Source: an uncultured Rhodothermales bacterium (GTDB lineage: Bacteria; Bacteroidota; Rhodothermia; Rhodothermales; VXPQ01). Taken from it: 64,000 nucleotides of DNA. The notes beneath the pieces were generated by a model. The model had not been told where the DNA came from and ran no database searches. It saw only the letters and a list, made by a program, of their open reading frames with translations. Below are positions 12,112-54,260 of the stretch, in pieces. The position numbers and the translations under genes were made by a program. Location of the stretch: contig CBFGRV010000006.1 of assembly GCA_965651265.1 (NCBI GenBank), positions 22,595 through 86,594 of the forward strand. The letters run 5' to 3'. How positions within the stretch are numbered: the first letter of the stretch is position 1; the number at the start of each line of letters is the position of its first letter.

Positions 12112-13826
12112 AGCCCTTCGATCGAAGAAAGCTCGCCGTGCGTGCCGGATTGGATGATCCGCCCATCCTCCAGAACAAGGATGCGATCCGCGTGCTGAAC
12201 GGTCGAGAGCCGGTGCGCGATGATGAAGGTGGTTCGCCCCGACATCAGACGCTCCAGGGCTTCCTGCACCAGCGCCTCCGACTCGGAGTCCAGCGATGAT
12301 GTGGCTTCATCGAGCAGCAGGATGGGGGCATCCTTCAGGATGGCGCGGGCGACCGACAGCCGCTGCTTTTCCCCGCCGCTGAGCTTCACGCCTCGCTCGC
12401 CGATAACGGTATCGTATCCGTCCGGCAGTCGCGTGGCGAACTCATCTACATTGGCCGCGATGGCCGCCTCGATCACCTCCTCGTCAGATGCCTCGAGGCG
12501 GCCATAGCGAATGTTCTCCATGATGGAGGTGTTGAACAGGTAGACATCCTGCGGAACGACGGCGATCTGCTCGCGCAGGGAACGAAGGGTCACGTCACGG
12601 ACGTCGACGCCATCGACGAGCACACGCCCTTCGTCCGGTTCGTAGAAGCGTGGAATGAGATTGAGGAGCGTCGTCTTGCCGGCCCCGCTTCGCCCCACGA
12701 GCGCGATCGTGGCGCCGAGAGCTACCTCAAAGCCGACGTCACGGAGGACGGGCACGTCGGGATCGTACCGGAACGAAACGTTTTCGAACGTCACCGCTCC
12801 CGAGACGCGTCCCAGCGGCCGAGCGCCCTCTCGATCCTGGATGGCCGGCTCCGTCTCCATCAAATCGAAAATCCGCTCCGACGCACCGGCTGCCGTGTTG
12901 AAAATGCTGTACAGGCGTGCCATCCCGCCCGTGCTTCGGGCGATGAAGAAGGCGTAGAAGATGAAGGCGACGAGATCGCCCGCCGTCAGCCGCCCGGCCA
13001 GCACCTCAATCCCGCCGAACCAGAAGATGGCCACCAGCGCACCGAAGAAGAGCAACCCGATGATGGTGGAAAAGAGGATGCGCTCGAGGATGGTGCGGCG
13101 CGAGGTGTGGAAGAGGTCCTCGACGGACGTGCCGTACCGGCCGACTTCGTGCTCCTCGCGCGCGAACGCCTTCACCACGCGCACGGCCGCTAGGGCCTCT
13201 TCGGCGATGGCCGTGGTGTCGGCGAGGCGATCCTGGATGTCGCGAGACAGGGCCCGGATGCGCCGGCCGAAGTAGCGCGCAAGCAGGGTGGCCGCCGGCA
13301 CGATCACGAATATCAGGGCCGACAGGCGCCAGTTCAGGAGCACCATCAAGGCGATGGATCCGATCAACGAGAGCGACTGCGAGAGTAGATCCACCATCGC
13401 AGAGGTGACGGCCGTGCGGATCGATCCCACGTCGTTCGTCAGCCGGGACGTGAGATCCCCGATGCGCTGGTTCGCGAAAAAGCGCAGGTCATGCCGGGTC
13501 ATGCGCTCGTAGAGCCGCTTGCGCAAGTCGGCGACGACGCGCTCGCCCGTCCATTCGAGCAGGTAGGTACCGCCAAAGCTGAGCGCACTCTGGGCCACGA
13601 ACAGCGCGAGCAGGATCAACGCCATGCGGTTCAGCAGCGACTGGTCGTCCGCCTGGAAGACGGCGTCGATCAGCGCTCGTACGCCCATCGGAACGGCGAG
13701 CCAGACGACGGAGCCAACCATCGTGAGGATGACGGCAACCGCCAGACGGCGGCGATACGGTGCGGCGAACTGAAGCATCCGGCGCACGGCAGCGATCAGA
13801 CGATATGGCGCACCCGTTTCGCTCAC
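12069..13826 (-). CDS. ABC exporter, fused TMD-NBD (MsbA/multidrug type)
   Basis: Six TM helices, Walker A GRSGAGKT, signature LSGGEKQ, Walker B LLLDEATS, IAHRL. Confidence 0.95.
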   Translation of the reverse strand: MSETGAPYRLIAAVRRMLQFAAPYRRRLAVAVILTMVGSVVWLAVPMGVRALIDAVFQADDQSLLNRMALILLALFVAQSALSFGGTYLLEWTGERVVADLRKRLYERMTRHDLRFFANQRIGDLTSRLTNDVGSIRTAVTSAMVDLLSQSLSLIGSIALMVLLNWRLSALIFVIVPAATLLARYFGRRIRALSRDIQDRLADTTAIAEEALAAVRVVKAFAREEHEVGRYGTSVEDLFHTSRRTILERILFSTIIGLLFFGALVAIFWFGGIEVLAGRLTAGDLVAFIFYAFFIARSTGGMARLYSIFNTAAGASERIFDLMETEPAIQDREGARPLGRVSGAVTFENVSFRYDPDVPVLRDVGFEVALGATIALVGRSGAGKTTLLNLIPRFYEPDEGRVLVDGVDVRDVTLRSLREQIAVVPQDVYLFNTSIMENIRYGRLEASDEEVIEAAIAANVDEFATRLPDGYDTVIGERGVKLSGGEKQRLSVARAILKDAPILLLDEATSSLDSESEALVQEALERLMSGRTTFIIAHRLSTVQHADRILVLEDGRIIQSGTHGELSSIEGLYRRLASLQFAVEA

Positions 13827-15109: not shown

Positions 15110-16378
15110 ATGATCCGAATCGATGACGCGCTCGTCCGGCCGTTTTTAGACGAGTCTTTCTCCGGCCTCCTGCGCGATGCCGAGCTCGCACACGAAACCT
15201 TCCTGTCGAAGAGGGGCGCCGGTGGCGATCTCACGGGATGGCGCGATTTGCTCCTCCAACCGAACGATGCGCTCCTCGAACGCATCAATGAGATCGCGGA
15301 TGAAATCCGCCGTGACGCCGACGTGCTTGTCTGCATCGGAATCGGCGGCTCGTATCTCGGCGCGAAAGCCGTCATCGAGGCGCTCACGCCCTACTTTGGC
15401 GGTGACACAGGCCCCGAGATCGTCTTCGCCGGGCACCACATCAGCGGAGCCTACCTGCGCGAGCTTCTCGACCACATCGAGGGGCGCTCCGTTTTCGTGA
15501 ACGTCATCTCGAAGAGCGGGACGACGCTCGAGCCCGCCCTCGCCTTCCGCTACGTTCGTCAGATGGTTGAAGCGACCTTCGACGATGCGGACCGCCGGAT
15601 CATCGTCACGACAGATCCGGAGAAGGGTGCCCTGAACAGGCTGCATCAGGAGCGTGGGTATCGGAAGTTCGACATTCCGCCCGATGTCGGCGGGCGCTTT
15701 TCCGTACTCACTCCGGTCGGCCTCCTTCCGATCGCGGTGGCCGGCATCGATATCGTCTCACTTTTCTATGGGGCCGTGGCGGCGGCCGAGGATCTGACCG
15801 AGGCGGCCGACAACGACGCCATCCGGTATGCGGCTGTGCGAAACGCCTTTCTGCGACAGGGGAAGGCCGTCGAACTCCTCGCCGTCTTCGAGCCGCGCCT
15901 TCGAGGACTCGGAGAATGGTGGCAGCAGCTCTACGGAGAGAGCGAGGGTAAGGATCAAAAAGGCCTATTTCCCGCCATCGCTCAGTATTCGACCGACCTC
16001 CATTCGTTCGGGCAATACGTCCAGGAAGGTCAGCGAACTTTGATGGAGACGTTCTTGATGGTCGATAATGATGAGGGCGCGCTGCGCGTTCCCGGCTCCG
16101 AGGACGATCTGGATGGATTGAATTACCTGCTGGGCAAGACTGTGAGAGATGTGAACAGGGCGGCCTACGAGGGCACGTCGCAAGCTCATTCGGCCGGAAA
16201 CGTACCCAATCTCACCGTCTGGCTCGACCGCATCTCGCCCGGCACGATCGGCGAAGCCATCTATTTCTTCGAACACGCCGTCGCCGTCTCGGGCTACCTC
16301 CTGGGCGTGAATCCCTTCGATCAGCCGGGCGTCGAGGCCTATAAAAAGGAGATGTTCCGCCTATTGGGCCGGCCCTGA
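15110..16378 (+). CDS. pgi: Glucose-6-phosphate isomerase (short type)
   Basis: GIGGSYLG, ISKSGTTLE, VGGRFSVLTPVG, QLYGESEGK, DLHSFGQ, NPFDQPGVEAYK. Confidence 0.97.
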   Translation: MIRIDDALVRPFLDESFSGLLRDAELAHETFLSKRGAGGDLTGWRDLLLQPNDALLERINEIADEIRRDADVLVCIGIGGSYLGAKAVIEALTPYFGGDTGPEIVFAGHHISGAYLRELLDHIEGRSVFVNVISKSGTTLEPALAFRYVRQMVEATFDDADRRIIVTTDPEKGALNRLHQERGYRKFDIPPDVGGRFSVLTPVGLLPIAVAGIDIVSLFYGAVAAAEDLTEAADNDAIRYAAVRNAFLRQGKAVELLAVFEPRLRGLGEWWQQLYGESEGKDQKGLFPAIAQYSTDLHSFGQYVQEGQRTLMETFLMVDNDEGALRVPGSEDDLDGLNYLLGKTVRDVNRAAYEGTSQAHSAGNVPNLTVWLDRISPGTIGEAIYFFEHAVAVSGYLLGVNPFDQPGVEAYKKEMFRLLGRP

Positions 16379-16419
16379 GGTCTGAGTGCTCGATGGGAGG
16401 CGAGGGGTCACGCCGTGCC

Positions 16420-16850
16420 CAGGCCTTATCCCCATCACGTGGACAGGTCGTGGAAAAGCTGGAGTTTATCCTGTACTCCGCCTCTTGCGGCTGATCGGTG
16501 TGCACATCGAAGCGGTTGCTCACACGTCCCCACTACGATTCCCACCCAAATTCACGCCCAAAGGCGGAGTGTACAACTTTCGCGAATGTTTCCACATGCC
16601 CGGGCGTGAATTGCGGTGAATTCGTGGAGATCTCGGCCTTTAGGCCAGAACGTTGCCGAGCCCGACCGTTGCATCCTCATCGGCTCTGGTTGATTTCTCC
16701 GTGGCAATAGGCTCGCATTGTCAACAACGTCCGACGCCGGCGACGTGGACATCCCCCTCATCCACATTCCCACAGGCCCAACTACAACCTCCTACTACAT
16801 CTTTTAAAAGATATATCTGATATAATAGAGGCCGTGAATCTGTGGGTAAG
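16420..16850. other. Candidate chromosomal replication origin (DnaA-box cluster plus basal unwinding element)
   Basis: Boxes with 7-8/9 match to TTWTNCACA at 16426, 16449(-), 16516, 16588, 16718, 16758, 16766, 16841(-). The tandem 16758/16766 pair is followed by GGCCC, CTA/CAA-type triplets (16779-16803) and a tract with 23/26 A/T (16802-16827). Confidence 0.7.
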
Positions 16851-16887
16851 CCGGCCTATCGCCGGTTGATCTTAACGAACGGACATC

Positions 16888-17727
16888 ATGATCAAGAGAA
16901 TCCTGCTGGCGCTGGACGTCGACTCCGACACGATCGTTGCCACCGACTTCGCCGTAGAAATCGCACGGCGATATGATGCTGAAATAACCGGCCTGGCCGT
17001 CGTCGACACAGGCAGCATCGAGGCCGGCACGCGCGGTGCTGGAATCGGCAGCATGTACTACGCCGAGAAACTGCGTGAAAGCCTGACCGCGGAGACGAGA
17101 GCCAAGGCCAGGGAACTCATCGACCAGTTCGAGAGCGTCGTGACGAAGAAGAACGTCGCCTACGAAGTGGCCGTGCACGAGGGCGTCCCCTACCGGCGAA
17201 TATTGGAGGACATCAAATACCACGATCTGCTTGTGGTGGGTCGAGAGCCACACTTCTTTTACGGCCGTCCCGACCATAAGACGGACACGCTGAGCCGGGT
17301 CGTCAAGGAAGCCACAGGCCCGGGCCTCGTGGTGGGTGAGACACGCGAAAGAGCCGAGCGCGTCATGGTAGCCTATGACGGCAGTCCTGCGTCGGCTCGG
17401 ACGGCGCAGTATTTCCTGCACCTGCTGCCCTTCGGGAGGGACATCGAGGTGGAGATTGTCAACGTGCATGACGGGAACGAGGCGGAGTCGGAGCTGATGC
17501 TTGACATGATGGCCACCTACTACTCCAAGCACGGTCTGCGGGCCAGAAAAACGAGCATTCGCGGAGACGATCCGGCCAGAATCATCACAGAGCACGCCCT
17601 CAACATGGAGTGTGACGTGATCGTGGCCGGAGCCCATTCCGTGTCAAAGATCAAAGAGCTGGCATTTGGATCGACTACGGCGTCCCTTCTCGCAAACTGC
17701 CCGCGCCCCATGTTTCTGTATACTTGA
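16888..17727 (+). CDS. Universal stress protein with two USP domains
   Basis: KRILLALD...; second domain VMVAYDGSPAS; VAGAHS...FGSTTASLL. Confidence 0.92.
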   Translation: MIKRILLALDVDSDTIVATDFAVEIARRYDAEITGLAVVDTGSIEAGTRGAGIGSMYYAEKLRESLTAETRAKARELIDQFESVVTKKNVAYEVAVHEGVPYRRILEDIKYHDLLVVGREPHFFYGRPDHKTDTLSRVVKEATGPGLVVGETRERAERVMVAYDGSPASARTAQYFLHLLPFGRDIEVEIVNVHDGNEAESELMLDMMATYYSKHGLRARKTSIRGDDPARIITEHALNMECDVIVAGAHSVSKIKELAFGSTTASLLANCPRPMFLYT

Positions 17728-17776
17728 TGGGGCCTTCCCGGACTTCGAAGCCGGCCAAGGGTCGGCGGTTGCTCCG

Positions 17777-20179
17777 CTAGTAGGTTACGCGCTCCACGCG
17801 CCGGCCATCGAAGCGAAGCCAGACGGCGCCCGATTTGCCGGTCACCTCCACATGAAATCCGCTACGGTCCAGACGCTCGAGCACGTCTTCATCAGGAAGT
17901 CCGTATCGATTTCGTTCGGCCACGCTGACGATAGCCGGCGGCGAGGCACCCTCCCGGACGGTCGAAAGGAACGCCGGCGCTGAACTGGTACGCGAGCCGT
18001 GGTGGCCCACTTTCAGGGCGTCGCTGCGTAGCCAATCGCGAAACGTTCGGACGAGGGCCAGCTCGGCATCGCGTGGAGCATCTCCCGTCATGATGATGCT
18101 GGTCGCGCCGTACGAGATGCGCAGCACGACCGAATGGTCGTTGGGGGATGTCCCGATAGTCCACTCGTTCGGGAAGAGGACGTAGGTTCGCACGTTCGGA
18201 TCGATCTGCAGCGTGTCGCCGGCCCGCGCAATCTGCTCCGGTATCTGCAGGCTGTCCAGGAGCCGTCCGGTTTCACGGTAGAGGTCTGTCGGATGCTCGA
18301 AGCCGGATCGCACGACGCGGCCGACGGGCATTGCACGGAGCACAGCGGGCAATCCGCCCAGGTGGTCGTTGTCCGGATGGGTAATCACTACGGTGTGCAG
18401 GTGCCGAATGCCCAGACGATCGATCTGGGGCAGGATGACGTCGCTTCCGGCATCGCCGTATGCCGACCGAGGGCCGGCATCCACGAGCATGGCCTCACCG
18501 TTGGGAAATTGGACGATGGCCGCGTCGCCCTGCCCTACATCCAGCATGATGACCTCAAGATCCGGAATCCATCGCCGTTCCATCACCCCAAACCAGATGT
18601 GTCCCACAATTACGACGCCGGCGAGGAGCAGAAGCGTCCATCGGTGCGATGGATCGCGCCAGCGGCCGATGGCCAGCACGCCAAGCACCATCGCGATGAT
18701 GGGGGCCGGATGATCGATGGTCCATTCCAGGAGGGCCCAACCGGCATACCGGTCACCGACTTCCGAGACCGTAAGCAGCGATTGGGCCAACACATCCGAC
18801 GAAGCGCCGATCGTCGTCCCCATCACGGACGATAGCTCGCCCGCCATGATCGCAACGAGTCCGGATACGAGAAGCGCCGTCGTGATGGGAATGGCCGGCA
18901 GGTTCAAAAGGAATCCGGCCATTGCCGCCTGCCCGAAGTGATAGAGCACCACCGGCAGGGTGCCGAGCGTGGCAGCCGTGGTCACCAACAGCGATGAGTG
19001 CAGGTACCCGAGGGTCTTGGAAGCGGGCGCGGCAAACGACCGTTGGAGCTGCGGCATCAATCCAACGATCGATCCAACCGCCGCCATCGACAGCTGGAAA
19101 CCCGGCTCGAACAGATGTACAGGCCGGAGCACCAGAATGAGGAGGGCGGCCACCCCGAGCGTATTCATTGAATCCGTGCTCCGCTGAAGCGTTGTCGCCA
19201 TCATGAAGAGCAGAGCCATGACCACGGCCCGCACGACAGATGCCGTCCCGCCGGCGAGCACCATATAGGCCAGCAGGAGCAGGGCCGTTGTGATGGTGCG
19301 AATGAGTTCCACGCGACGCCATCCAAAACGAAATCGCATAAGGATGGGCCCGAGGTGCTTGTAGAGGATCATGCCGACCACCATCACATGGAGTCCGGAG
19401 ACGGCCAGTAGATGAAGCAGGCCCGTGCGTGCGAAACGATCGCGAACCGCAGTGTCGATGGCCCGCTTGTCGCCTAGCAGCAGGGCACGCATGACGCCTC
19501 TGGCCTCTCGATCGAGCAGAAAGCGATCGATGCGCCGCTCTATGGCATGGCGGACGTCAGCCGCAACACAAGCGAGGCCGGACCTGCGGGACGCGACGAC
19601 CGCGGCGCTCTCCGCGAACATGCGCACGTAGATTCGTTGCCTTCGTAAGTACGCCCCGTAGTCGAAATCGCCCGGATTCCGTCGCCGGGGGAGATCGGAT
19701 AGTTCGCCGCGCACACGGACCACGTCACACGTGCGGAGGCCCGGCGCGGCATCGGCGACGTAGACAAGCAGCTTTCCAGCGGGACCGCCCGCCTCGGGCT
19801 CTAGAACTAGCGTGAACCGTACAAGTCGTCCGCTCTGTGCGGGCTCATCGGCGATCCAGCCTTGCACGTCGACCTCGGTCCCCAGCGGCAAGTGGGAGAT
19901 GTGGTCTGCTCGAGGAGTGACGTAGTCCTGATACCGGAGCACGCCGGCCGCGACGACCAGCACGAGGGCGGAGGCGGTCATCATGACCTCCGTCGAAGAG
20001 AGGATTCTCCCTTCGCCAGCGAGCAGGGCTCCGGCGGCCGGTGCAAGCCCGGTGGCGGCCAGGAGGAGTCCGCCCGAGAGCGGCAGATCCATCCCATGCG
20101 CCAGACCGATCCCGCCGGCGAAGCAGCCGGCGATAATCAGCCCGGGGTAAGCATTCCAGCAAATGCCGCGAGATGACAT
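17777..20179 (-). CDS. comEC: ComEC/Rec2 DNA internalisation competence protein
   Basis: OB-fold NPGDFDY, GLLHLLAVSGLHV, beta-lactamase domain LDVGQGDA, HPDNDH, KVGHHGS; GGAGG RBS. Confidence 0.95.
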   Translation of the reverse strand: MSSRGICWNAYPGLIIAGCFAGGIGLAHGMDLPLSGGLLLAATGLAPAAGALLAGEGRILSSTEVMMTASALVLVVAAGVLRYQDYVTPRADHISHLPLGTEVDVQGWIADEPAQSGRLVRFTLVLEPEAGGPAGKLLVYVADAAPGLRTCDVVRVRGELSDLPRRRNPGDFDYGAYLRRQRIYVRMFAESAAVVASRRSGLACVAADVRHAIERRIDRFLLDREARGVMRALLLGDKRAIDTAVRDRFARTGLLHLLAVSGLHVMVVGMILYKHLGPILMRFRFGWRRVELIRTITTALLLLAYMVLAGGTASVVRAVVMALLFMMATTLQRSTDSMNTLGVAALLILVLRPVHLFEPGFQLSMAAVGSIVGLMPQLQRSFAAPASKTLGYLHSSLLVTTAATLGTLPVVLYHFGQAAMAGFLLNLPAIPITTALLVSGLVAIMAGELSSVMGTTIGASSDVLAQSLLTVSEVGDRYAGWALLEWTIDHPAPIIAMVLGVLAIGRWRDPSHRWTLLLLAGVVIVGHIWFGVMERRWIPDLEVIMLDVGQGDAAIVQFPNGEAMLVDAGPRSAYGDAGSDVILPQIDRLGIRHLHTVVITHPDNDHLGGLPAVLRAMPVGRVVRSGFEHPTDLYRETGRLLDSLQIPEQIARAGDTLQIDPNVRTYVLFPNEWTIGTSPNDHSVVLRISYGATSIIMTGDAPRDAELALVRTFRDWLRSDALKVGHHGSRTSSAPAFLSTVREGASPPAIVSVAERNRYGLPDEDVLERLDRSGFHVEVTGKSGAVWLRFDGRRVERVTY

Positions 20180-28687: not shown

Positions 28688-28716
28688 TTGCCGCGGCATC
28701 CTCTCCGGGGTATATT
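28688..28716 (+). promoter_or_regulatory. Sigma70-like promoter for the four-gene module
   Basis: TTGCCG (28688-28693), 17-nt spacer, TATATT (28711-28716). Confidence 0.5.
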
Positions 28717-28793
28717 CCAATCGGCTTGACGTGTTGGCGCCGCTTTTCTCAGCAGGCCGCGGCACGCTTCGTCGAACACCTCTCTGCCGACCG

Positions 28794-29381
28794 ATGCATC
28801 ACCCTCAAACAGCAACCGCCGGCGTGGTGGCTCGCCCGACGAGCCTCATGGAACGGCTCAATACGATCTGGCACGAGCGTGCGCTGCAGATCTTCATGGC
28901 GATCGTACTGGCGCACTGGGCTGAACACCTGGTCCAGGCCTATCAGATTTACGCGTTGAAGATGCCCCTGCCCGAAGCGCGCGGCTTGCTGGGGTACTGG
29001 TATCCGTGGTTGGTGGCGTCGGAGACCCTCCACTACGGCTATGCGCTGGTCATGGTCGTCGTGCTGTGGGTACTTCGGACGGGGTTCACCGGCCGATCCT
29101 ACACGTGGTGGATGGTGGCATTCGGCATCCAGTTCTGGCACCACATAGAGCACGCGCTGCTGCAGGCCCAGGTGCTGATCGGAATGAACCTGATGAATGC
29201 GCCTGTGCCGATTAGCATCCTCCAGATATGGATTCGCCGGCCCGAGCTGCACCTGATCTACAATGCGGCAGTATTCTTCCCGATGATCGTGGCGATGTAC
29301 TACCACCTGTTCCCGTCGCCCGAAGAGGAGTCACAGATGCAGTGCAGTTGTGCGATTCGTCCCCGAGCCGCGATGGCGTAG
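28794..29381 (+). CDS. His-rich integral membrane protein with duplicated HxxEH / E(x)LH motifs (DUF6008-like, tentative)
   Basis: About four hydrophobic helices; HWAEH...ETLHY and HHIEH...ELHL; C-terminal CSC; start set at ATG 28794. Confidence 0.7.
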   Translation: MHHPQTATAGVVARPTSLMERLNTIWHERALQIFMAIVLAHWAEHLVQAYQIYALKMPLPEARGLLGYWYPWLVASETLHYGYALVMVVVLWVLRTGFTGRSYTWWMVAFGIQFWHHIEHALLQAQVLIGMNLMNAPVPISILQIWIRRPELHLIYNAAVFFPMIVAMYYHLFPSPEEESQMQCSCAIRPRAAMA

Positions 29382-29778
29382 TACGCGCGCCGGCGCGCGT
29401 CGTGCGCTTCTCCCTTTTACGCTTCTCCTGCTCGCATTTGGAGTCGGCTGCGGAGCGAATGAATCGGCGGACAACGTAGCGGTTGACTGGGAGGTCGCTC
29501 CCGATCCACCCTCGGTGGGACCCGTCGTCGTCGCCGTGGGGTTATCCGGTGTGGACGGGCAGCCGATTCGCGGTGCCTCCGTTCGGCTGGAGGCCACCAT
29601 GACCCATCCCGGGATGGCACCGGCCATTGCGGCGGCCGAGGAAACGGCGCCGGGGCGGTACGAGGCCGGGCTGAGCCTCTCCATGGCCGGCGACTGGCTG
29701 TTGATCGTCCAGGCCGAACTGCCGGATGGCCGGATTCTGCAGCGGCAACACGATTTGCGAGGTGTGTCCGCGCCCTGA
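29350..29778 (+). CDS. YtkA/FixH-like lipoprotein
   Basis: Lipobox-like FGVGC; LEATMTHPGMAP, PGRYEA, MAGDWLLIV pattern of YtkA-like Ig-fold domains. Confidence 0.75.
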   Translation: MRFVPEPRWRSTRAGARRALLPFTLLLLAFGVGCGANESADNVAVDWEVAPDPPSVGPVVVAVGLSGVDGQPIRGASVRLEATMTHPGMAPAIAAAEETAPGRYEAGLSLSMAGDWLLIVQAELPDGRILQRQHDLRGVSAP

Positions 29779-29806
29779 TGGTCGATTCGGTGAAGCGTGA
29801 CGGGAA

Positions 29807-31300
29807 TTGCGCGGTTTGATGCAGAGCCTCCCCATCATAGGCGACGAAACGGCCGTTCAGACGCGCGGTCGAACGAGGGGCTTCGACGTGCTCGAGCTGC
29901 CCGTTGTGGGGGCCTTCCTCAAGTGGCACGGCTCGCGCCGCACGATGCAGGCCGTGATGCTCGTCGTTGCCGTGGTGATGATCGTGCATGGCTTCCTCGG
30001 GCCGCAACTCGCCCCGCGGAATCTGGCGACCCTGCTCACCTGGGTGCACTACCGCGGGCTCCTGGTGCTCGCGCTCCTCGTGGCGGGGAATCTCTTCTGC
30101 ATGGCGTGTCCGTTCATCCTGGTGCGGGACCTCGCCCGCCGGTTCGCCAGGCCCGTTCTGCACTGGCCGGCGCGGCTGCGGTCGAAGTGGCTCGCCGTTG
30201 GGCTATTCGTGGCCGTGCTTTTCTCGTACGAATACTTCGACCTCTGGGGCTCGCCACTGTGGACGGCCTGGCTGATCGTGGCCTACTTCGCGGCCGCCCT
30301 CCTCATCGACTCCTTCTTTACGAACGCTTCCTTCTGCAAGTATGTCTGCCCCGTCGGGCAGTTCAATTTCGTGGGATCGACGGTTTCGCCTCTGGAGGTC
30401 TCCGTGCGCGATCACGACGTGTGCGCCTCGTGTACCACACTCGACTGCATCAAGGGTACGCGAGCGGCGCACGAGCCGTCGCTCGTTCTACAACGAGGGT
30501 GCGAGCTCGCGCTCTTCCAGCCGAAGAAGGAGGGCAACATGGACTGCACCTTCTGCCTGGATTGCGTGTACGCGTGCCCGCACGACAATATCGGCATTCA
30601 CGCGCGGCTGCCGGGCAGCGAACTCTTCGGGGATCCACGCCGGTCCGGGGTGGGCCGGTTCTCGCGGCGGCCGGATCTGGCGGCGCTCGCCCTGCTCTTC
30701 ACGTTCGGCGCCCTCCTGAATGCTTTCGGGATGGTGAGCCCGGTCTACGCCGTGCAGGAGTGGCTCGCCGGGCTGCTGGGGACGACCTCTGAGTTGCCCG
30801 TCCTCGCCACACTGTTCGCCGTCGCCCTCGTCGTCGAGCCCGCCGTCCTGATCGGCGGTGCCGCCTACGCCACGAAACTCGCGACGGGAACGTCCGACCG
30901 GCTGGCCGGGATCGTCGTGCGCTTCGCCTACGCGCTCATCCCGCTCGGCTTTGGCATCTGGCTCTCGCATTACAGCTTCCATTTTCTGACCGGCATCTGG
31001 ACGGTCGTCCCCGTCATCCAACAAATGCTGCTGGACGCGAGCATCACCGTCTTTGGATTACCGGCCTGGCATCTCACGGGCGTCCCGCAGGAGCTCGTGC
31101 TTCCACTCGAGCTCGGATTTCTCGGCCTGGGCGCCGTGGGAACGCTGCTGACGGCCTACCGTATCGCCGAGCGCGAATATCCGGAGCAAGCCGCCAGGGC
31201 TTTCGTGCCGTGGGCCATTTTGAGCCTGATGCTCCTCGCCGCCGCCGTCTGGTTGCTCTATCAGCCCATGGAAATGCGCGGGACGTTTCTGGGCAGCTGA
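29807..31300 (+). CDS. Membrane polyferredoxin (NapH/FixG/RdxA-like 4Fe-4S binding protein)
   Basis: FCMACP, FCKYVCP, CASCTTLDC...GC, CTFCLDCVYACP; many TM helices. Confidence 0.85.
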   Translation: MRGLMQSLPIIGDETAVQTRGRTRGFDVLELPVVGAFLKWHGSRRTMQAVMLVVAVVMIVHGFLGPQLAPRNLATLLTWVHYRGLLVLALLVAGNLFCMACPFILVRDLARRFARPVLHWPARLRSKWLAVGLFVAVLFSYEYFDLWGSPLWTAWLIVAYFAAALLIDSFFTNASFCKYVCPVGQFNFVGSTVSPLEVSVRDHDVCASCTTLDCIKGTRAAHEPSLVLQRGCELALFQPKKEGNMDCTFCLDCVYACPHDNIGIHARLPGSELFGDPRRSGVGRFSRRPDLAALALLFTFGALLNAFGMVSPVYAVQEWLAGLLGTTSELPVLATLFAVALVVEPAVLIGGAAYATKLATGTSDRLAGIVVRFAYALIPLGFGIWLSHYSFHFLTGIWTVVPVIQQMLLDASITVFGLPAWHLTGVPQELVLPLELGFLGLGAVGTLLTAYRIAEREYPEQAARAFVPWAILSLMLLAAAVWLLYQPMEMRGTFLGS

Positions 31301-31347
31301 TCGGCCTCGTGATTCTGGCCGTTGATTCTTACAGGCACCTACTACTC

Positions 31348-31887
31348 ATGACGAATCGCACGAGCTCGCGGAAAGGCCGTCTTGCCGGCACGATCGCCGT
31401 GCTTCTCCTCGTGCCGTTCCTGCAGGCGCACGAAGGGCCGCCCTTCCCCATCGTGGTCGACCACGAGATCGGGCCCATGCTCGTTTCCGTGTGGACGGAC
31501 CCCGACATCGGCATCGGCACCTTCTTCGTCGTCTTTGAGGCCGCCGGCGATGCCGTCCTCCCCGACGATCTCGCCGTCCAGATCGGTATCCGGCCGGTAT
31601 CGGGCCGGCTCGAGGAGGTGCTGTACCGCGCGGAGCCGCAGCGCGTGCGGAAGGGCGCGCGCTTTTTCACGGAGGTGGAATTCGATCAGGGAGAATGGTG
31701 GGATGTCCGCGTTATCGTGGAGAGCTCGGCGGGCAGCGGTGAGATCCACTCACAGGTCGAGGCGACGCCCGACGGCACCCTGGGACCCATCAGTCTGGTC
31801 ATCTTTCTCCTGCCCTTCCTGGCCGTCGGTTTTCTCTGGTTCAAGGCGGTGATGCGAAAGCGCCGGATGAGCGCGGAATCCGCATAG
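31348..31887 (+). CDS. Exported, C-terminally membrane-anchored protein with predicted mature N-terminal His
   Basis: Signal peptide ...LLLVPFLQA|HEGPPFPI; C-terminal TM helix plus basic tail; start set at ATG 31348. Confidence 0.65.
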   Translation: MTNRTSSRKGRLAGTIAVLLLVPFLQAHEGPPFPIVVDHEIGPMLVSVWTDPDIGIGTFFVVFEAAGDAVLPDDLAVQIGIRPVSGRLEEVLYRAEPQRVRKGARFFTEVEFDQGEWWDVRVIVESSAGSGEIHSQVEATPDGTLGPISLVIFLLPFLAVGFLWFKAVMRKRRMSAESA

Positions 31888-32041
31888 CGAAGAGCAACAA
31901 TCCTGTGAGTCGCGCGGACGTTGCAATTCAGAAGGCACCGCGGCATCCCGCCCAAGTTGAGCTGAGGTAGGGCGGCAGGGCTGGCCTGGTCCCGGGCTAT
32001 GTCGCTATCCCCAAGATGCTTCACCAGATACGTGTACTGCC

Positions 32042-32449
32042 ATGATGAATCGGTACTTCTATCGTGTGATGCCCCTCGTGACGCTCGCCGTCTCGGCCGC
32101 ACTCGCCCTTCAGCTTTCGGGATGTCTCGCAGCAGGTGCTGCCGCGGGTGCGGCGGTGGGCGGCTGCGCGCTCCTCGATCGGAATGAAGACCAGCGTGTC
32201 ACCGCCGCCGAGTTGTCCGACGGCCTCTTCGACGCGTGGGATGCAAATGACGATAACGAACTTTCCCGGCCGGAATTCCAGGAAGGCGTGTCCACCAGCC
32301 CGCGCTACCAGAGCTGGTCGGTCGAGTTCGGAAATTGGGATTCGAATGCCGACGATATGCTCGCGCGCTCGGAATTCCGTTCCGGCGTGGGCGGCAGCCC
32401 CGATACGGCGGAGTGGCTGGACGATCAGTGCGACGACCTGGGCCTGTAG
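32042..32449 (+). CDS. EF-hand-like lipoprotein
   Basis: Lipobox-like LSGC; three loops DRNEDQRVTAAE, DANDDNELSRPE, DSNADDMLARSE. Confidence 0.7.
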   Translation: MMNRYFYRVMPLVTLAVSAALALQLSGCLAAGAAAGAAVGGCALLDRNEDQRVTAAELSDGLFDAWDANDDNELSRPEFQEGVSTSPRYQSWSVEFGNWDSNADDMLARSEFRSGVGGSPDTAEWLDDQCDDLGL

Positions 32450-32737
32450 ACCCACACTACAGATAGTTTCGGCATTACGGATTCTGGATCCGCCGGCCAG
32501 AACCCCGTGCCGGCAGGGCTACCGTCGACAGGCATGGCGGCGGCAGACGCCGTGTGCCGGTGGAACTCCTGTGAATCACCCCGGAGTCCTGCGTGAATCG
32601 TGAACCTCGCGGCCGGTAAGCGGTAAGAGTCGTCCTCGCGCAGGGGTGGAGCGGCTGCCCGCATCGGGGCCGGTTTCGGGGAACCGATTTGTGGACGTGG
32701 GACGAGCCTCCGTCGAACCCTCGCGCAACCTACCGAA

Positions 32738-32808
32738 GGTGACGTGGCCGAGGGGTTAGGCAAAGGTCTGCAAAACCTTGTACGGCGGTTCGAATCCGCC
32801 CGTCACCT
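32738..32808 (+). tRNA. tRNA-Cys(GCA), CCA not encoded
   Basis: Acceptor GGTGACG/CGTCACC, anticodon arm AAGGT-CTGCAAA-ACCTT, GTTCGAATCC. Confidence 0.95.
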
Positions 32809-32837
32809 CAACAGGGGAGCGCCTTCGGGCTATGAAT

Positions 32838-32880
32838 AAGCCTCATCCGACGAGCTTCGCGGGTGGGGCTTCATATTTTT
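32838..32880 (+). terminator. Intrinsic terminator-like hairpin after tRNA-Cys
   Basis: AAGCCTCATCCG ... CGGGTGGGGCTT stem (with G-U pairs) followed by CATATTTTT. Confidence 0.55.
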
Positions 32881-32895
32881 CGCCGTCTTAGAAAG

Positions 32896-33474
32896 TCACT
32901 CCTCCCGGCGGAGGCGGATCAGGTCCACCAGGATGCCGTGGTTGTCGCGGCCGAAGTGCCTCAGGCGAATCCGTGCCTCGGTCGGCTCCGGCACGCCAAA
33001 ATCACGCGTGTAAAGCCTGAACTTCTCATTGGCTTCGAGAATGAAGCGTTCCGAAAACGCGGTCCCGATGGTCACGTCCATCGTGTCGGTGGGCCGCCCA
33101 CGGTTGTTGCCGGCCAGCCACACCTCGAACAGATAGGTCTCGCCCGGCTCCAGCAGGTAAACTTCCTTGCTCTCGATCGTGCCGGCCCTATTGCAGGTGC
33201 CGTCCATGTCGATGTAGATCCCGTTGCCTGGCTGGACGTCGAAATGTCCGTTTCCATGCAGGTCGATGCAGCCGTCCACTAAGTTGTATTGCTCCAGGTC
33301 GGTCCAGTTGTTCTGACCGACTCCTCCGTTCTCGTTGTCGAAATCGCTCACGATCAGGATCGTCGCCGGATCGGCGGGCGGGAGCTCGATGCCGACGACC
33401 TTTTCTTTACAGGCCCCCAGTGCGAGAAACGGAAGCAGGAGGAGCGCGATGAGAAATGTCCAGGAGCTTCGCAT
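32896..33474 (-). CDS. Hypothetical lipoprotein with jelly-roll/carbohydrate-binding-like domain
   Basis: Lipobox-like ALGAC; IDLHGNGHFDVQPGNGIYIDMDG resembles DUF642-like beta-sandwich domains; start set at ATG 33474. Confidence 0.55.
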   Translation of the reverse strand: MRSSWTFLIALLLLPFLALGACKEKVVGIELPPADPATILIVSDFDNENGGVGQNNWTDLEQYNLVDGCIDLHGNGHFDVQPGNGIYIDMDGTCNRAGTIESKEVYLLEPGETYLFEVWLAGNNRGRPTDTMDVTIGTAFSERFILEANEKFRLYTRDFGVPEPTEARIRLRHFGRDNHGILVDLIRLRREE

Positions 33475-33704
33475 AATAACCTCGTCGAAATGCAGAAACC
33501 GATTCGTCCCCCCATCGCATGTCAGAGCGCCGCTCTTAACTAATAGCAAGGACGACGGCAACTTTCAAGCGGTATCGGCATCACCCGTAACGGCCTTTAG
33601 CGCATTCGCAAGCGGCGCGGCTTGCCCCGCCGTATCTTTCCGTGCGAGGCGGCCTCGCACGCCCTACGGATCCGCCACTGCCTAACCCGAGGGATCGGGT
33701 CTTC

Positions 33705-36700
33705 ATGAGCGGCTCAACCATTACCTGTCCCGTCTGCGGAACATCGAACCCCGCGGGCTTCAATTTCTGCGGGAATTGCGGCGCCCGCCTCTCCGCGTCG
33801 ACCTCCGGAGGCAGCGCCGAGCGGCGCCAGATCACGGTGATGTTCTGCGATCTGATCGGATCGGTCGCGATGTCGCTCAAGCTCGATCCGGAAGATCTTC
33901 GCGACGTCATCCACCGCTACCAGGAAGCCTGCGTGGCGGCGGTCGAGGCTTTCGGCGGATACGTGGCGCAGTATCTGGGGGATGGGATCATGGCCTACTT
34001 CGGCTATCCCGTCGTCCACGACGCGGAGGCCGAGCGCGCCGTTCGTGCAGGGCTGGACATCATTGGGCGCGTCGAGGCCCTGAGCATCGAGATCCGCCGG
34101 GCCCACCAGATCGACGTGTCCGTGCGAGTGGGCATCGACACGGGGCTCGTGGTCGTCGGCGAGGTCGGGAGCGGCACCCGAAAGGAGCACCTGGCACTGG
34201 GCGAGACGCCGAACAGGGCGGCGCGCCTGCAGACGCTCGCGCCCCCCAATGGACTCGTCGTGAGCGAGGCCACGCAGCGGCTGGTCGCGGACATCTTCGA
34301 AACGGAAGACCTCGGCCCGCAGGCGCTCAAGGGCATCCTCGACACCGAACGTGTCTATCGGATTCTAGGCGACCGGCTTCCGGAAGGCGCCACGGATCTG
34401 ACCGGTATGCCACGGCGCGTGAGCACCGTCGGACGCGAGCCGGAGCTCGAGATCATCCGCGAATGCTGGGCATCCGTCGAGGAGGGCGCGGCCCGCATCG
34501 TGATCCTGCGCGGCGAGCCCGGCATCGGGAAGTCGCACCTGGTGCATCTCTTTCGGCAAGAGCTTGCTGACGACGCTCACACGCGCATCGAGTGCCGCTG
34601 CTCCCCATTCCTCCAGGGGAGCCCCTTTCATCCCATCGTGGACTGGATGCAGCGCATCTTCAACTTCTATCCGGATCAGTCCGTCGACGAACGGCTCGAC
34701 ATGGTGGAGTTCGTCTGCCGGCAGAATACGATCACCGACCCCGATGCGCCGCGGCTGCTGGCGGGCCTCCTCTCGCTGCCGGCTGACCTCCGGTATCCGA
34801 ACCCTGGCTACAGCGCTTCGCGAATCCGCGAACGAACCCACGAGATCCTCGAAACGTTGCTGCTTCAGATGGCGGACGACTGCCCGCTCGTGTTCGTGCT
34901 GGAGGACGAGCAGTGGATCGATCCATCCACCAGAGGCTTCCTGGAGCAGTTCGCGGCCGGGGCCGGGGGCCGGCGAATACTCGTGCTGGTGACGTCCCGT
35001 GAGCGCGTGCGGGTTCGCTGGCCCAGCGATCTGCCCGTCACCATCCTCTCGCTCGACAAACTCGACGTCGATCATGTCCGCATGCTGGTCAGGGATCTGG
35101 CCGCGCCGCGTGAGCTCCCGGAATCCGTAGTCGGCCAGATCGTGCAGAAGAGCGACGGCATCCCGCTCTTCGTGCAAGAGTTCACCCGGATGGTGCTGGA
35201 GATGCATGCCCCCGATGAAGAGGAAGAGACGCCCGTACCCCTCGCATCCGCGGACCTGTCCATCCCCGTGACGCTCCATGACTCGTTGATGGCGCGGCTC
35301 GATCGCCTCCATCCCATCAAGGAAGTTGCGCAGATCTGTTCCGTGATCGGACGCGAGTTCACCTTTGAGCTGGCCCTTGCTGCCTCGCGAATGGGCGAAT
35401 CAACCCTGGCAGAGGCCCTGGTCGAGCTCGTCCGGGCGGACGTCCTCGTCGGCGAGGGCCGTCCTCCGCGCAGCCGGTACATGTTCCGGCATGCCCTCAT
35501 CCAGGAGGCCGCCTACGAGTCCATGCTCCGCACCCGGCGGGCGGTGTACCACCGGCGCATCGCGCGGTACCTGGCGGAGAAGCGCGAGGAGGAGGAGCTC
35601 GATGTGATTGCGCATCACCTTTCGCGGGCGGGCGACCTGGAGGGTGCCGCGCGCTACTGGCTCAGGGCCGGAAGGCGGGCTCACGAGCGATGGGCGAATG
35701 AGGAGGCCGTGGATTACTTCACGCGCGGCATGGCGCTGGTCAGAGAGCTCCCCGATTCTCCTGAAAACCGAAAGACGTCCTTCTTCCTGCAGGCCGGGCA
35801 TGCCGTCGCCCTGCTGCCCATCCGGGGTTACACACATCCCGGCGTGCTCCTCGCCTTTGAGCGTGCGGCGGAGCTGGCCGACGGCGTCGACGATCCGGCC
35901 GCGGCCATGCCCGTGGTGCGTGGGCTGTGGTCCTACTACACCGTGCTGGCGGATCACGATCGGGGCGCCGCACTGGCGGAATACCTCGAGGCTCTGGCTC
36001 GCAAGTCGGGACAGCACATCCTTCAGGATGAAGCCATGGCCGCCCGGGCCAGCTCGCTGATCTGGCGCGGAGAAGCCAGGGAGAGCCGAGACTTGTTCGA
36101 AACGGCCTTGGAGGGGCTCCGCGCGATTGCATCGGAGCCTCCGGCTACGCTCGCCTTTCAGCATCCATGCGTCGGTGCGCTATCCTATCTCGCCTTCGCC
36201 AACTGGTATCTGGGCGAGACGGAGGTGGCGATGGAGCGGAGCCGCGAATCCGTGAAGCTCGCGGACGACCTTGACCATCCTTTCAGCCGCGCTTTCGCCT
36301 ACGTCTTCGACGCGGCACTCAAAACGTACCTCGGACTGCGAGACGAAGCGCGCAAGAGCGCGGAGCAGTCGTTCGTGATCTCATCCCGCTTCGGTTTTCC
36401 GTTCTGGCTGAACGTCAGCCGCGTGCTGTCGGGATGGGCCATGGCGCCCACCGACGTTGACGAAGCCATCGAACAGATGCGTGGAGGCTTGAATGCTCTA
36501 CAGAGTGCGGGCGTGCGGATCTGGACCGCCTATCCCAGCGCACTACTTGCCCAGCTGCTGGGAGATGCGGGGAGGCCGGACGAGGCCCTCGAGCTCCTCG
36601 ATGCCGTCGTCGATCGAAATCGAAGCAACGGGGAAGGCTTCCTCCTACCAGAGATCCTGCGCCTCCGCGCCCGCCAGCTCGATGCACTCGACCGGCATAC

Positions 36701-36911
36701 GGAGGCGGCGGCCGATCGGAAGGAGGCGGTCCAGCTCGCTCAGCAACAGGGAGCGCGACCCATCCTGCTTCGCGTTCTCATGGATGTCATTCAAACCGAA
36801 GACCGGCCTGATCCCGCCCTCCGAGACCTCCTCCGCACGACGGCGGACGGCTACGATGATCGCCTGAATCTCGCGGACGTCACGGCCGCGCGCCGTCTGC
36901 TCGCGACGTAG
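33705..36911 (+). CDS. Class III adenylate/guanylate cyclase with N-terminal zinc ribbon, STAND-type AAA ATPase and TPR region
   Basis: CPVC...CGNC; FCDLIGS, YLGDG, RVGIDTG, NRAARLQ; Walker A GEPGIGKS; helical C-terminus; start set at ATG 33705. Confidence 0.9.
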   Translation: MSGSTITCPVCGTSNPAGFNFCGNCGARLSASTSGGSAERRQITVMFCDLIGSVAMSLKLDPEDLRDVIHRYQEACVAAVEAFGGYVAQYLGDGIMAYFGYPVVHDAEAERAVRAGLDIIGRVEALSIEIRRAHQIDVSVRVGIDTGLVVVGEVGSGTRKEHLALGETPNRAARLQTLAPPNGLVVSEATQRLVADIFETEDLGPQALKGILDTERVYRILGDRLPEGATDLTGMPRRVSTVGREPELEIIRECWASVEEGAARIVILRGEPGIGKSHLVHLFRQELADDAHTRIECRCSPFLQGSPFHPIVDWMQRIFNFYPDQSVDERLDMVEFVCRQNTITDPDAPRLLAGLLSLPADLRYPNPGYSASRIRERTHEILETLLLQMADDCPLVFVLEDEQWIDPSTRGFLEQFAAGAGGRRILVLVTSRERVRVRWPSDLPVTILSLDKLDVDHVRMLVRDLAAPRELPESVVGQIVQKSDGIPLFVQEFTRMVLEMHAPDEEEETPVPLASADLSIPVTLHDSLMARLDRLHPIKEVAQICSVIGREFTFELALAASRMGESTLAEALVELVRADVLVGEGRPPRSRYMFRHALIQEAAYESMLRTRRAVYHRRIARYLAEKREEEELDVIAHHLSRAGDLEGAARYWLRAGRRAHERWANEEAVDYFTRGMALVRELPDSPENRKTSFFLQAGHAVALLPIRGYTHPGVLLAFERAAELADGVDDPAAAMPVVRGLWSYYTVLADHDRGAALAEYLEALARKSGQHILQDEAMAARASSLIWRGEARESRDLFETALEGLRAIASEPPATLAFQHPCVGALSYLAFANWYLGETEVAMERSRESVKLADDLDHPFSRAFAYVFDAALKTYLGLRDEARKSAEQSFVISSRFGFPFWLNVSRVLSGWAMAPTDVDEAIEQMRGGLNALQSAGVRIWTAYPSALLAQLLGDAGRPDEALELLDAVVDRNRSNGEGFLLPEILRLRARQLDALDRHTEAAADRKEAVQLAQQQGARPILLRVLMDVIQTEDRPDPALRDLLRTTADGYDDRLNLADVTAARRLLAT

Positions 36912-37124
36912 CTATTCGTCCTCGACGGTAAAGCCGATCTTGACGGTCACCTGCCAGTGAGCCACCTTCCCATCTTGGATGTGCCCTCGCGTGGAGAGCA
37001 CTTCGAACCACCGCATGTTGTGCACGGTCTTGCCGGCTCGCGCGAGCGCGGTTTCCACGGCATGCTCGATACTCTGCGTCGACGATCCGGTCAGCTCGAT
37101 GATCTTGTATACGTGATCGCTCAT
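36912..37124 (-). CDS. Dodecin (flavin-binding)
   Basis: [12 protein letters not shown]...MRWFEV...WQVTVKIGF. Confidence 0.93.
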
Positions 37125-37160
37125 CGTCTCCATCCTTCTTAGGCCTCGGGTGATTATGTA

Positions 37161-38561
37161 CTACGAGACGAGCTGCATCCGATCCGGGTCCCACCGGTAG
37201 ATCCGACCGTCCCGGTAACTGAGGTTCGCCAGCAGCGCAGGCGCCGCGGCACGGAATCCGACCTCGCTGTCCTCGACCGTCTTCGAGCCGTTGCGCACGG
37301 CATTGAAGAAGTCGACGAAATGGTCGTAGCGCGAATCGTAGCCCCCGGGCACGTTGAACTCGCGCACCTCTCCCATCTCGCGGGCCATCTGAGGCTCCGT
37401 GTGCTCCTGCCGCCACTGCTGAGCGAAAGCTTCGCGGTCTGCTTCGCACCACGTCCGAACCGAGTTGTAGCCCTCGACCAGGTTTTCCAGCGACGGATCG
37501 CGCATCGGCCGCTGCGTCAGCTTCAGCCCGCCACCACCTATGCTTATGGCGCCTTCGCTGCCGATGAATTCGAAGACGGTTCCGCCTCCGCTTCCATCCG
37601 CAAAGTTGGACTGCAGAGCCAGCGTGAAGCCCGGATGCGAGTCCGTCTCAGGATACTCGTACAGGGCGAGAATGACGTCCGGCACGTCGCGCCCGTCATG
37701 CCAGTAGCGTAGCCCGCCCTGCGCCATCGCGCTCACCGGCCCGTTCGACGATAGCACATGGTTTATGCCGGTGAACAGGTGCACGAACAGGTCCCCGGGG
37801 ATGCCCGTTCCGTAATCCTGATAGTTGCGCCAGCGGAAGAAGCGGATCGGATCAAACGGATGATCCGGCGCCGGCCCGATAAACGCCTCCCAGTCGATGT
37901 CCTGCGGGGTCACGTTCGGTGGGATGGAGTACTGCCACGCGCCGATGGAATCCCGCCGGTTATAGCGCGCCTGCACCATGTTGATCTCGCCGATCGCACC
38001 GGAGCGCACCAGATCGCGCGCCTGGTGATAGACGATGTCGCTCTTGAACTGACTTCCGACCTGCACGACGCGGCCCGTGCGGCGCTGAGCGTCGATCACA
38101 TTTTGCCCATCCTCGATCTTCTGGACCATGGGTTTCTCGAGGTAGATGTCCTTGCCGGACTCCATCGCGTCGATGGCGATCTGCGCGTGCCAGTGATCAG
38201 GTGTCGAGATGATGACGGCATCCACATCCGGCCGCGCCAGGATCTCGCGGTAATCGCGCGTCGTGAAGACATCCTGACCGTAGTATTCCTTGACGCGGCA
38301 GAGGCGCGAGTCGTACAGATCCGCAGCGGCCACCAGCTGTACGCCCGGCACCATCAGCGCCGTGTCGGTATCGATGAATCCGATGATGCCGGTTCCGATC
38401 GTGGCCAGATTGATCTGATCGTTCGCGGCAAACTTCTTCGGCTGGTAAGGGATGGTCTCGCGCTGAGTGGCCAGCGCCTGCGGCACCAGTCCGGCAGCGG
38501 CGCCGGTAGCCGCAGCAAGTTTGAGGAATCGTCGTCGGGAGGATCTCTTGTTGGCCATCAT
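37161..38561 (-). CDS. Tat-exported Gfo/Idh/MocA family oxidoreductase
   Basis: Tat motif SRRRFLK, IGTGIIG, STPDHWH, YLEKP. Confidence 0.92.
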
Positions 38562-38660
38562 CGATCACGATCTGTTGGGTGGTCCGTCGGGAGGGAGCAA
38601 TGCATCCCAGGTCCCCTCTGAATATACGTGCCGACTCGAAGAGATGGGCGCTGAAGCCGC

Positions 38661-51093: not shown

Positions 51094-52227
51094 TTACGCG
51101 TACGTATTCAGCATCACAGGCATGATGAGCATGAGCATGTCCTCATCCTCGGCCTGCTCCCCCGGCGTCACGACGCCCGCCCGATTCGGCGAGCTGAATT
51201 CGAAGACGGCGTCCTCCGCATCGATGTGGCTGAGCACTTCCGTGAGATAAACGGAATTGAAGCCGATCACCATCGGGTCGCTGTTGTAGTCGCACCGAAC
51301 CGTCTCGTGGGCCTCGCTGGACCGCTCGATGTCCTCCGCCGAAACCTCGACCCGATCCGCGTCCAGCGAGAGCCGGATCTGGTTCGTCATGCTGGATGAG
51401 TACAGACCAACGCGCTTGACGGCTGCCAGCATGGCATCCCGATTCACGACCATCCGCTTTTCGTTCTCCAGCGGGATGACCGCCTCGTAATTCGGATAAG
51501 ACTCGTCGATCAGCCTCGCCAAGATGCGGCTGTTCGCGAAATCGAATCCGACGTAGCCCTCGTCGACGATGATCGTGCAGTGCTCATCGGTGACAACCTT
51601 CCCAAGAAGAGCCATGGCTTTCTCCGGGACGATAAAGTCTGTCTGCTCGTCAGCCGTCAGTCCGTTGAGCTGCAGCTTGACGAGCCGATGACCGTCCGTG
51701 GCCACGGCGCGCCCCTCGTCCGGGCCGATCTGGAAATAGATGCCCATCATCGCCGGACGCAATGCATCCTTGCTCACGGCGAAGCTCGTCTTTTGAATGG
51801 CGCGGCGCAGCAGGGCGCCCTCCGTCTCGATACGCCGATCGGAATTAAGCTCCGGGAGCGCCGGGTAATCCGCCCCGTCGAAGCCGACCATTTTGTATTC
51901 ACCCATGTCCGTCTTCAACACGACCTGGAACTCGTCGTCGGACGCAAACTGGATCGGGAGTTCGGGGAGAGCCCTCAGCGTATCGAGCAGCCGCTTGGCC
52001 GGGACAGCGATCCGCTGGCCGGCGCCCGTGCCGTTCGTCTCGAACTGAACATTGATCCGCTGGACGATAGAAATCTCCAGATCGGTGGCGGTCAGGCGAA
52101 GGCCGGTATCATCCAGCTGCTCAAAGAGGATGCACTCGAGGATGGGCAGGGGGTTCTTCGAGGGTACGGCACCCCCGACAACGGTGAGCGCCTTGAGCAG
52201 ATCGGCACTGGAGGCAGAAAACTTCAT
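51094..52227 (-). CDS. dnaN: DNA polymerase III beta clamp
   Basis: LPILECILF, LTATDLEI, VATDGHRL, YPNYEAVIP, MLIMPV; start set at ATG 52227. Confidence 0.97.
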   Translation of the reverse strand: MKFSASSADLLKALTVVGGAVPSKNPLPILECILFEQLDDTGLRLTATDLEISIVQRINVQFETNGTGAGQRIAVPAKRLLDTLRALPELPIQFASDDEFQVVLKTDMGEYKMVGFDGADYPALPELNSDRRIETEGALLRRAIQKTSFAVSKDALRPAMMGIYFQIGPDEGRAVATDGHRLVKLQLNGLTADEQTDFIVPEKAMALLGKVVTDEHCTIIVDEGYVGFDFANSRILARLIDESYPNYEAVIPLENEKRMVVNRDAMLAAVKRVGLYSSSMTNQIRLSLDADRVEVSAEDIERSSEAHETVRCDYNSDPMVIGFNSVYLTEVLSHIDAEDAVFEFSSPNRAGVVTPGEQAEDEDMLMLIMPVMLNTYA

Positions 52228-52315
52228 GGGTCTGGTAATTCGTGGATCAGTGGCTGTTAGGCAGCGCCCGTGACGCGAACGCCCCGCTCCGTGAAAGCCG
52301 GGAGAGGCATCCGGT

Positions 52316-54009: not shown

Positions 54010-54260
54010 ACCGGTTATTCACACCGCATCAGGCCGGGCGAAGGAAAATGCCCGAGGCGTGCCGGCACGTTGCTCTCGAGAGACCAACACTTTATGCACA
54101 TGCACGCATCCGGGCTCAAACCCCCGAAAACATAAGGCTTAGCGCCTCTTCGCAAACGCGAAATCAACACTAAGCCTCGCCTGTACTGTTCTCAGCCCTT
54201 CCGCACTCTTGTACAACCTCGGGCCGCCCGAAAGGGTTGTCCACAAATTGTCCACGGCGC
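54010..54260. promoter_or_regulatory. DnaA-box cluster upstream of dnaA
   Basis: TTATTCACA 54015, TTATGCACA 54092, TTGTCCACA 54237, TTGTCCACG 54248. Confidence 0.75.

Follow-up and report, generated by a model that had tools for sequence, protein, structure and literature searches.

The chromosomal origin of E. coli, between gidA and mioC, is remote from dnaA, which keeps DnaA boxes of its own for autoregulation. Clusters of DnaA boxes also occur outside origins, such as datA and DARS in E. coli and the box clusters of B. subtilis, which are without a module of box, trio and AT tract and lie off the skew minimum. In B. subtilis oriC, the basal unwinding system (BUS) comprises DnaA-boxes 6/7, a GC spacer, the DnaA-trios and an AT-rich region (PMC6669920, PMC8287927). 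According to the published rule, a BUS contains a DnaA box with no more than 2 mismatches to TTATCCACA, optionally a weaker tandem box (up to 4 mismatches) before the triplets, and at least 3 consecutive 3'-NAN-5' triplets starting no more than 16 bp past the more conserved box, where the triplets sit on the strand carrying 5'-TGTGGATAA-3' and the AT-rich region lies beyond them; strand separation in a BUS depends on DnaA and needs boxes as well as triplets (PMC8287927). The supplementary table of that study places the BUS of S. ruber DSM 13855 (oriC DoriC ORI10020025) at 13000–13029, with the site given as 3'-AATAGGTGT AAAGGTGT GCT GATTATTAT-5' (Pelliciari et al. 2021, PMC8287927), and that of R. 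marinus DSM 4252, on the basis of DoriC, at the dnaA flank (29..3261599; PMC8287927).

The window, a stretch of 64,000 nucleotides (G000:C6:22595–86594) from a draft assembly of 172 contigs, 3.8 Mb and 62% GC, contains a gap between pgi and usp that is very probably the chromosomal oriC of this uncultured Rhodothermales bacterium, so placed by the relatives of its PGI, with positions 16744–16849 as the unwinding core of the origin. This locus and the gidA-mioC origin of E. coli are both unlinked from dnaA, but their neighbours differ and the motif grammar of the window is of the B. subtilis type. Like datA, DARS and the box clusters of B. subtilis, the locus in the window groups DnaA boxes at a distance from dnaA, but it possesses the module and has orthologues at the skew minimum. 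As compared with the BUS of B. subtilis, it has the same order and orientation of parts, namely paired boxes, a GC stretch of about 4 bp, 3'-GAT-5' triplets located on the 5'-TGTGGATAA-3' strand and an AT tract. It differs in four respects: the two boxes of the pair share 1 nt (8-bp phase) where those of B. subtilis are separated, a 1-nt frame shift interrupts the triplets, the far side of the AT tract is bounded by a box pair in mirror image, and the element lies 36 kb from dnaA instead of between dnaA and dnaN.

The S. ruber site, which the profile R1 described below matches at 12984–13048, shares with the window an 8-bp-phased pair (TTATCCACA|TTTCCACA), a short spacer, CTA-type triplets, an AT tract, a right-hand TAG-N4-TGTGGATAA and an adjoining comEC, and has dnaA 12 kb off. 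However, neither pgi nor usp stands beside the S. ruber element, and its triplets (CTA ATA ATA) start 11 bp past the strong box, whereas the window has a degenerate in-frame set, with the good run starting 22 bp past its own strong box. The BUS-type order recognised by an earlier note on this DNA is present, but the arrangement is not new, and the origin call is an ordinary one because the matching S. ruber site is already listed as an origin.

DnaA boxes and probable unwinding core of the pgi–usp gap

Table 1. Features of the putative origin region and of the dnaA locus (window coordinates; mismatches are relative to TTATCCACA).
Feature	Position	Strand	Remarks
pgi	15110–16378	+	Pfam PGI; left neighbour of the putative origin; linkage with the element holds within the family and in R. 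marinus
pgi–usp intergenic gap (proposed oriC region)	16379–16887 (509 bp)	.	top DnaA-box window
DnaA box TTATCCCCA	16426–16434	+	1 mismatch
DnaA box TTTTCCACG	16449–16457	-	2 mismatches
DnaA box GTTTCCACA	16588–16596	+	2 mismatches
DnaA box TTGTCAACA	16718–16726	+	2 mismatches
Weak inverted box CGTGGACAT	16744–16752	-	position of the conserved upstream TGTGnAnAA box; columns 4–12 of alignment A1
Distal strong box TCATCCACA	16758–16766	+	1 mismatch; columns conserved in A1
Proximal weak box ATTCCCACA	16766–16774	+	3 mismatches; 1-nt overlap with the distal box, 8-bp phase
Short GC spacer GGCC	16775–16778	.	GCCC in relatives
DnaA-trio region	16779–16797	-	top strand CAA CTA CAA, C, CTC CTA CTA
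AT-rich unwinding tract (predicted)	16798–16829 (alternatively 16796–16829)	.	25/30 A/T; tract end CTGATATAATAG
TGATATAAT, resembling an extended -10 promoter element	16818–16826	+	inside block CTGATATAATAGAG, identical in three genera
TAA TAG	16823–16828	+	candidate trios (top strand) for a right-hand module in mirror image
Right-hand inverted pair: weak CGTGAATC and TGTGGGTAA	16833–16849	-	TGTGGGTAA (1 mismatch) at 16841–16849
usp	16888–17727	+	Pfam Usp; right neighbour; order identical in R. marinus
comEC	17777–20179	-	
dnaN	51094–52335	-	
dnaA	52316–53941	-	
Second DnaA-box cluster, upstream of dnaA (dnaA–yceD gap)	54015–54256	+	runner-up box window of the genome

The whole genome was scanned against TTATCCACA, and 500-bp windows were ranked by their boxes with no more than 1 mismatch. 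The pgi–usp gap ranks 1 genome-wide, with 3 such boxes and 3 further boxes with 2 mismatches, and by the DnaA-box cluster criterion for bacterial oriC it stands above the genomic background, which is 0.095 per kb for boxes with up to 1 mismatch, while boxes with 2 mismatches are common (1.4 per kb genome-wide). The gap also contains one of just 3 loci in the 3.8 Mb where at least 25 of 30 positions are A/T. An Rfam search of the gap gave no match. The letters quoted by the earlier note for 16758–16827 agree exactly with the sequence, and its separation of 35–37 kb between gap and dnaA is 35.5–37 kb as measured. The flanking boxes it named are found at 16426 and 16841 (1 mismatch each) and at 16449, 16588 and 16718 (2 mismatches each), but the one at 16516 is weak, with 3 mismatches. 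The gap is identical, with no differences, in independent metagenome assemblies. Assembler contigs from the public runs have flat depth and give neither a coverage slope nor transcription starts. Among such assemblies, comEC (17813–19450) carries many strain-level substitutions and the origin gap none.

Read against the BUS rule, TCATCCACA serves as the strong box and ATTCCCACA, between it and the triplets, as the optional weak box, while the AT-rich region reaches the A/T content given in Table 1. The bottom strand of the trio region reads 3'-GTT GAT GTT / GAG GAT GAT-5'. Its orientation was verified with the published BUS table, in which the S. ruber site, as written, implies that CTA on the strand reading TTATCCACA equals a 3'-GAT-5' trio. 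The set located 12 bp past the strong box contains one good trio out of three (CAA CTA CAA) and is degenerate in comparison with CTA CTA CAA in G003, while the sole run of three triplets, CTC CTA CTA (16789–16797), lies 22 bp past the strong box and 14 bp past the weak box. Relatives satisfy the triplet rule at 12 bp, for example with CTA CTA CTA in genus g7. The word complete, as used in the earlier note for this unwinding element, is slightly generous for this genome, given the 22 bp between triplet run and strong box. On the right-hand side, the spacer AGGC separates the tract end CTGATATAATAG from the weak box CGTGAATC.

For this genome we infer origin activity and DnaA binding and, with the B. 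subtilis BUS as the model, the following order of events. DnaA would dock on the tandem boxes (16758–16774), aided by the flanking boxes, and would oligomerise over the GC spacer onto the bottom-strand triplets of 3'-GAT-5' type, after which the AT tract would melt and allow helicase loading.

Conservation and GC skew in Rhodothermales

About 93 bp spanning the core share 78–81% identity with two other genera, and the remainder of the gap outside this core gives no alignment with those two genera. A block of 14 core positions is identical across the three genera, and the 8-bp phasing of strong and weak box is kept in alignment A1. The conserved order comprises two 8-bp-phased boxes, GCCC, CTA triplets, the AT tract, TAG and inverted boxes, with the A1 consensus TGTGnAnAA, N5, TTnTCCACA, TATCCACA, GCCC, CTA CTA CTA C and AT tract. 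A profile (R1) built from the core consensus was searched against 151 Rhodothermales genomes and gives a single match per genome in 110 of them, representing 61 of 73 genera, with E-values down to 1e-16. A BLAST match to G001 (L004) was rejected as a spurious coding match.

All 12 g7 genomes have the core layout 3' of pgi, as do most of the Rhodothermales loci compared, and the element adjoins pgi and/or comEC in relatives. R. marinus DSM 4252 has the same pgi-gap-usp-comEC order as the window. The same motif in relatives, which the earlier note had put forward as a check, is conserved in single copy, and in R. marinus it also lies in the pgi–usp gap. Among genomes with dnaA mapped, the element is never adjacent to this gene. 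In those complete genomes that were checked, dnaA is 12–230 kb from the element, and for a single weak match (E 1.2e-4) the distance is 581 kb; a bipartite origin joining both box clusters of the window was rejected on account of this variable spacing across the order and of the 36 kb between the clusters here.

Positions 13.8–60.8 kb of the window are collinear with 584–619 kb of G010, apart from an insertion of 10 kb, the additional gene usp and the inverted orientation of comEC. The insertion (about 10 kb at 28700–38600, lacking in the G010 region) lies between origin and dnaA and accounts for the origin–dnaA distance of 36 kb here as against about 25 kb in G010. The gene usp is not beside the origin in genus g7 or S. 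ruber (window 16888–20179 versus G010 586704–589190). In g7, comEC is inverted relative to this genome and R. marinus, and is co-directional with replication.

Skew was read as the cumulative GC-skew minimum and by GC3 regression, a regression of third-codon-position skew. The cumulative minimum lies 0.1–1.1 kb from the element in seven relatives, where dnaA is 23–31 kb from the element. Five of them are complete genomes from the same family as the window's bacterium, namely G010 (minimum 586407, element 586306, 101 bp apart), G013 (2092899 and 2093135, 236 bp), G006 (819223 and 818161, 1062 bp), G008 (1695157 and 1694093, 1064 bp) and G011 (237346 and 236286, 1060 bp), in which dnaA is 24–30 kb away within uniform skew sign, inside one replichore. 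G007, a closer relative with element and dnaA on one contig, has its minimum at 56534, the element at about 56950, a GC3-regression switch at 56000 and dnaA 30 kb away. The profile of R. marinus DSM 4252 (G046:C1) is a clean V (about -0.05 on the left, +0.03 on the right) with the minimum at 32002, the element at 32249–32313 and dnaA at 0.65 kb. By GC3 regression, G031 switches at 1157000, 2.4 kb from its element (1154654), with dnaA 230 kb away. The raw skew of G031 and the skew of G039, G056, G107 and G003, taken over 47–200 kb round the element, are weak or noisy with no usable signal, and gene-strand bias gives no usable switch.

The published placement of the R. marinus DSM 4252 BUS at the dnaA flank conflicts with this skew minimum and with the element in the pgi–usp gap, 31 kb away, and is probably a misprediction. 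That predictors based on proximity to dnaA would miss such a site, as the earlier note expected, is illustrated by this very genome, since it is listed at the dnaA flank while its skew minimum falls in the pgi–usp gap.

The skew check of the origin thus places the minimum at the element in seven relatives, but the window's own contig (C6) has weak skew, with a raw cumulative minimum near 52 kb of the window. In GC3 regression on this weak skew, the residual sum of squares falls from 147.4 for a switch at the element to 131.2 when the switch is set at the dnaA gap and to 125.4 when it is set at 57 kb, thus nominally favouring a switch at 50–58 kb, and the orthologues at 20–57 kb lean in skew opposite to those of G010. 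As calibration, interior GC3 pseudo-switches of comparable strength occur in 8 of the 20 largest contigs. The counter-evidence from the own contig is therefore weak, given the low and patchy skew and these pseudo-switches. The contig's skew is not taken as a mapping, and the origin assignment in this genome rests on orthology. Such GC3 flips suggest that the draft has numerous recent inversions, a mixture of strains or chimeric joins.

The dnaA flank and alternative readings of the gap

Boxes of the second cluster, upstream of dnaA, are located at 54015, 54092, 54237 and 54248; the flank holds 3 boxes with up to 1 mismatch, and a tandem pair is present. The dnaA flank was examined for triplets and an AT tract and contains neither, with A/T peaking at 63%. 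An equivalent cluster is located upstream of dnaA1 in 5/5 complete genomes examined from genus g7, where the skew minimum lies at the pgi element. This cluster, 36 kb from the pgi–usp gap, probably takes part in dnaA autoregulation and is not the unwinding site.

All same-family genomes carry two full-length dnaA paralogues with about 52–55% mutual identity, and the second copy of this genome is located on contig C99 (G000 C99:4238–5851, minus strand), with a perfect TTATCCACA just upstream (C99:5971). S. ruber likewise has two dnaA copies, while a single one is present in R. marinus and in several other families. In G010 the skew does not switch at the second copy (416 kb), and an origin at that copy was rejected. 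In genus g7, the orthologue of the DnaA encoded in the window (e.g. G010:611046–612062) aligns only from residue ~200 on (132–203 across the genus), and the g7 dnaA1 frame has about 420 aa versus 541 aa for DnaA here, which implies that the N-terminal domains of g7 DnaA are short or highly diverged.

The gap could instead be a DnaA-controlled promoter or a DnaA-titrating cluster in the style of datA, DARS or the B. subtilis clusters, with TGATATAAT driving usp and the origin in the dnaA–yceD gap, but this is unlikely. TGATATAAT, of the form TGnTATAAT (16818–26), lies 62 bp upstream of the usp ATG and, by its resemblance to an extended -10 element, could simply be the usp promoter. However, a sigma-70 promoter and terminator scan of the gap found no -35/-10 pair and no terminator, and the TAATAG block persists where comEC, not usp, sits downstream. 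A promoter may lie inside the origin and would not exclude origin function. An origin in the dnaA–yceD gap would agree with the three good boxes and tandem pair found there and with the nominal preference of the own-contig skew for 50–58 kb; against it stand the lack of triplets and AT tract in that flank, the example of g7, which has the same dnaA-flank boxes and yet has its origin mapped to the pgi element, and the orthologous element at the skew minimum in the seven relatives.

It is very improbable that the element is a recently retired origin, which would make it a relic or a secondary DnaA site in a species that alone had moved initiation to the dnaA flank. Such a move would fit the skew pattern of the own contig and the degenerate first triplets (CAA CTA CAA, versus CTA CTA CAA in G003), but all other core motifs are kept, including the 14 positions identical across three genera, the core is without differences across independent metagenomes, skew puts initiation at the element in the closer relative G007, and pseudo-switches are common in the draft. 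Chance clustering of box-like 9-mers beside an AT-rich promoter, to which the frequency of 2-mismatch boxes (1.4 per kb) might lend itself, is effectively refuted by the coincidence of the top box window with one of just 3 AT-rich loci and by single-copy conservation across the order (E down to 1e-16).

The reading of the pgi–usp gap as oriC thus remains the preferred one, and the view of the earlier note that this gap, not the dnaA flank, is the likely site of melting is supported by the skew minima of seven relatives, the single-copy conservation and a dnaA flank without an AT tract.

A possible mirror-image module and implications for the order

Rhodothermales origins may, tentatively, carry two mirror-image BUS modules round one AT tract of about 30–45 bp, as the motif layout hints. 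In this reading, the left half would have its trios on the bottom strand and run from a strong and a weak box through GCCC to CTA triplets. The right half would have its trios on the top strand, with TAG (sometimes TAG TAG) followed after 4 nt by an optional weak box and then by an inverted strong box. Of 33 lineages, 27 have an inverted box on the right-hand side of the AT tract, and in 18/33 TAG precedes this box by 2–5 or 10–14 nt, with the spacers clustering at 4 and 12 nt. In the window, the right-hand set (TAA TAG, 4 nt, weak box and TGTGGGTAA) may offer DnaA an anchor on the opposite strand. The words "inverted", "symmetr" and "both strands" are absent from the BUS paper (PMC8287927). 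If the module is real, its convergent anchors would lay DnaA filaments on both strands, which could explain the placement of two helicases.

Unless the mirror-image module proves functional, knowledge of origin function is unchanged. For public annotation, a probable misplacement is flagged in the prediction for R. marinus DSM 4252, where skew and homology point to 32.2 kb. The origin is very probably fixed for an uncultured Rhodothermales lineage, with pgi-oriC-(usp)-comEC as an old, order-wide arrangement, which is of use for replichore orientation, growth-rate estimates from metagenome coverage and origin annotation.
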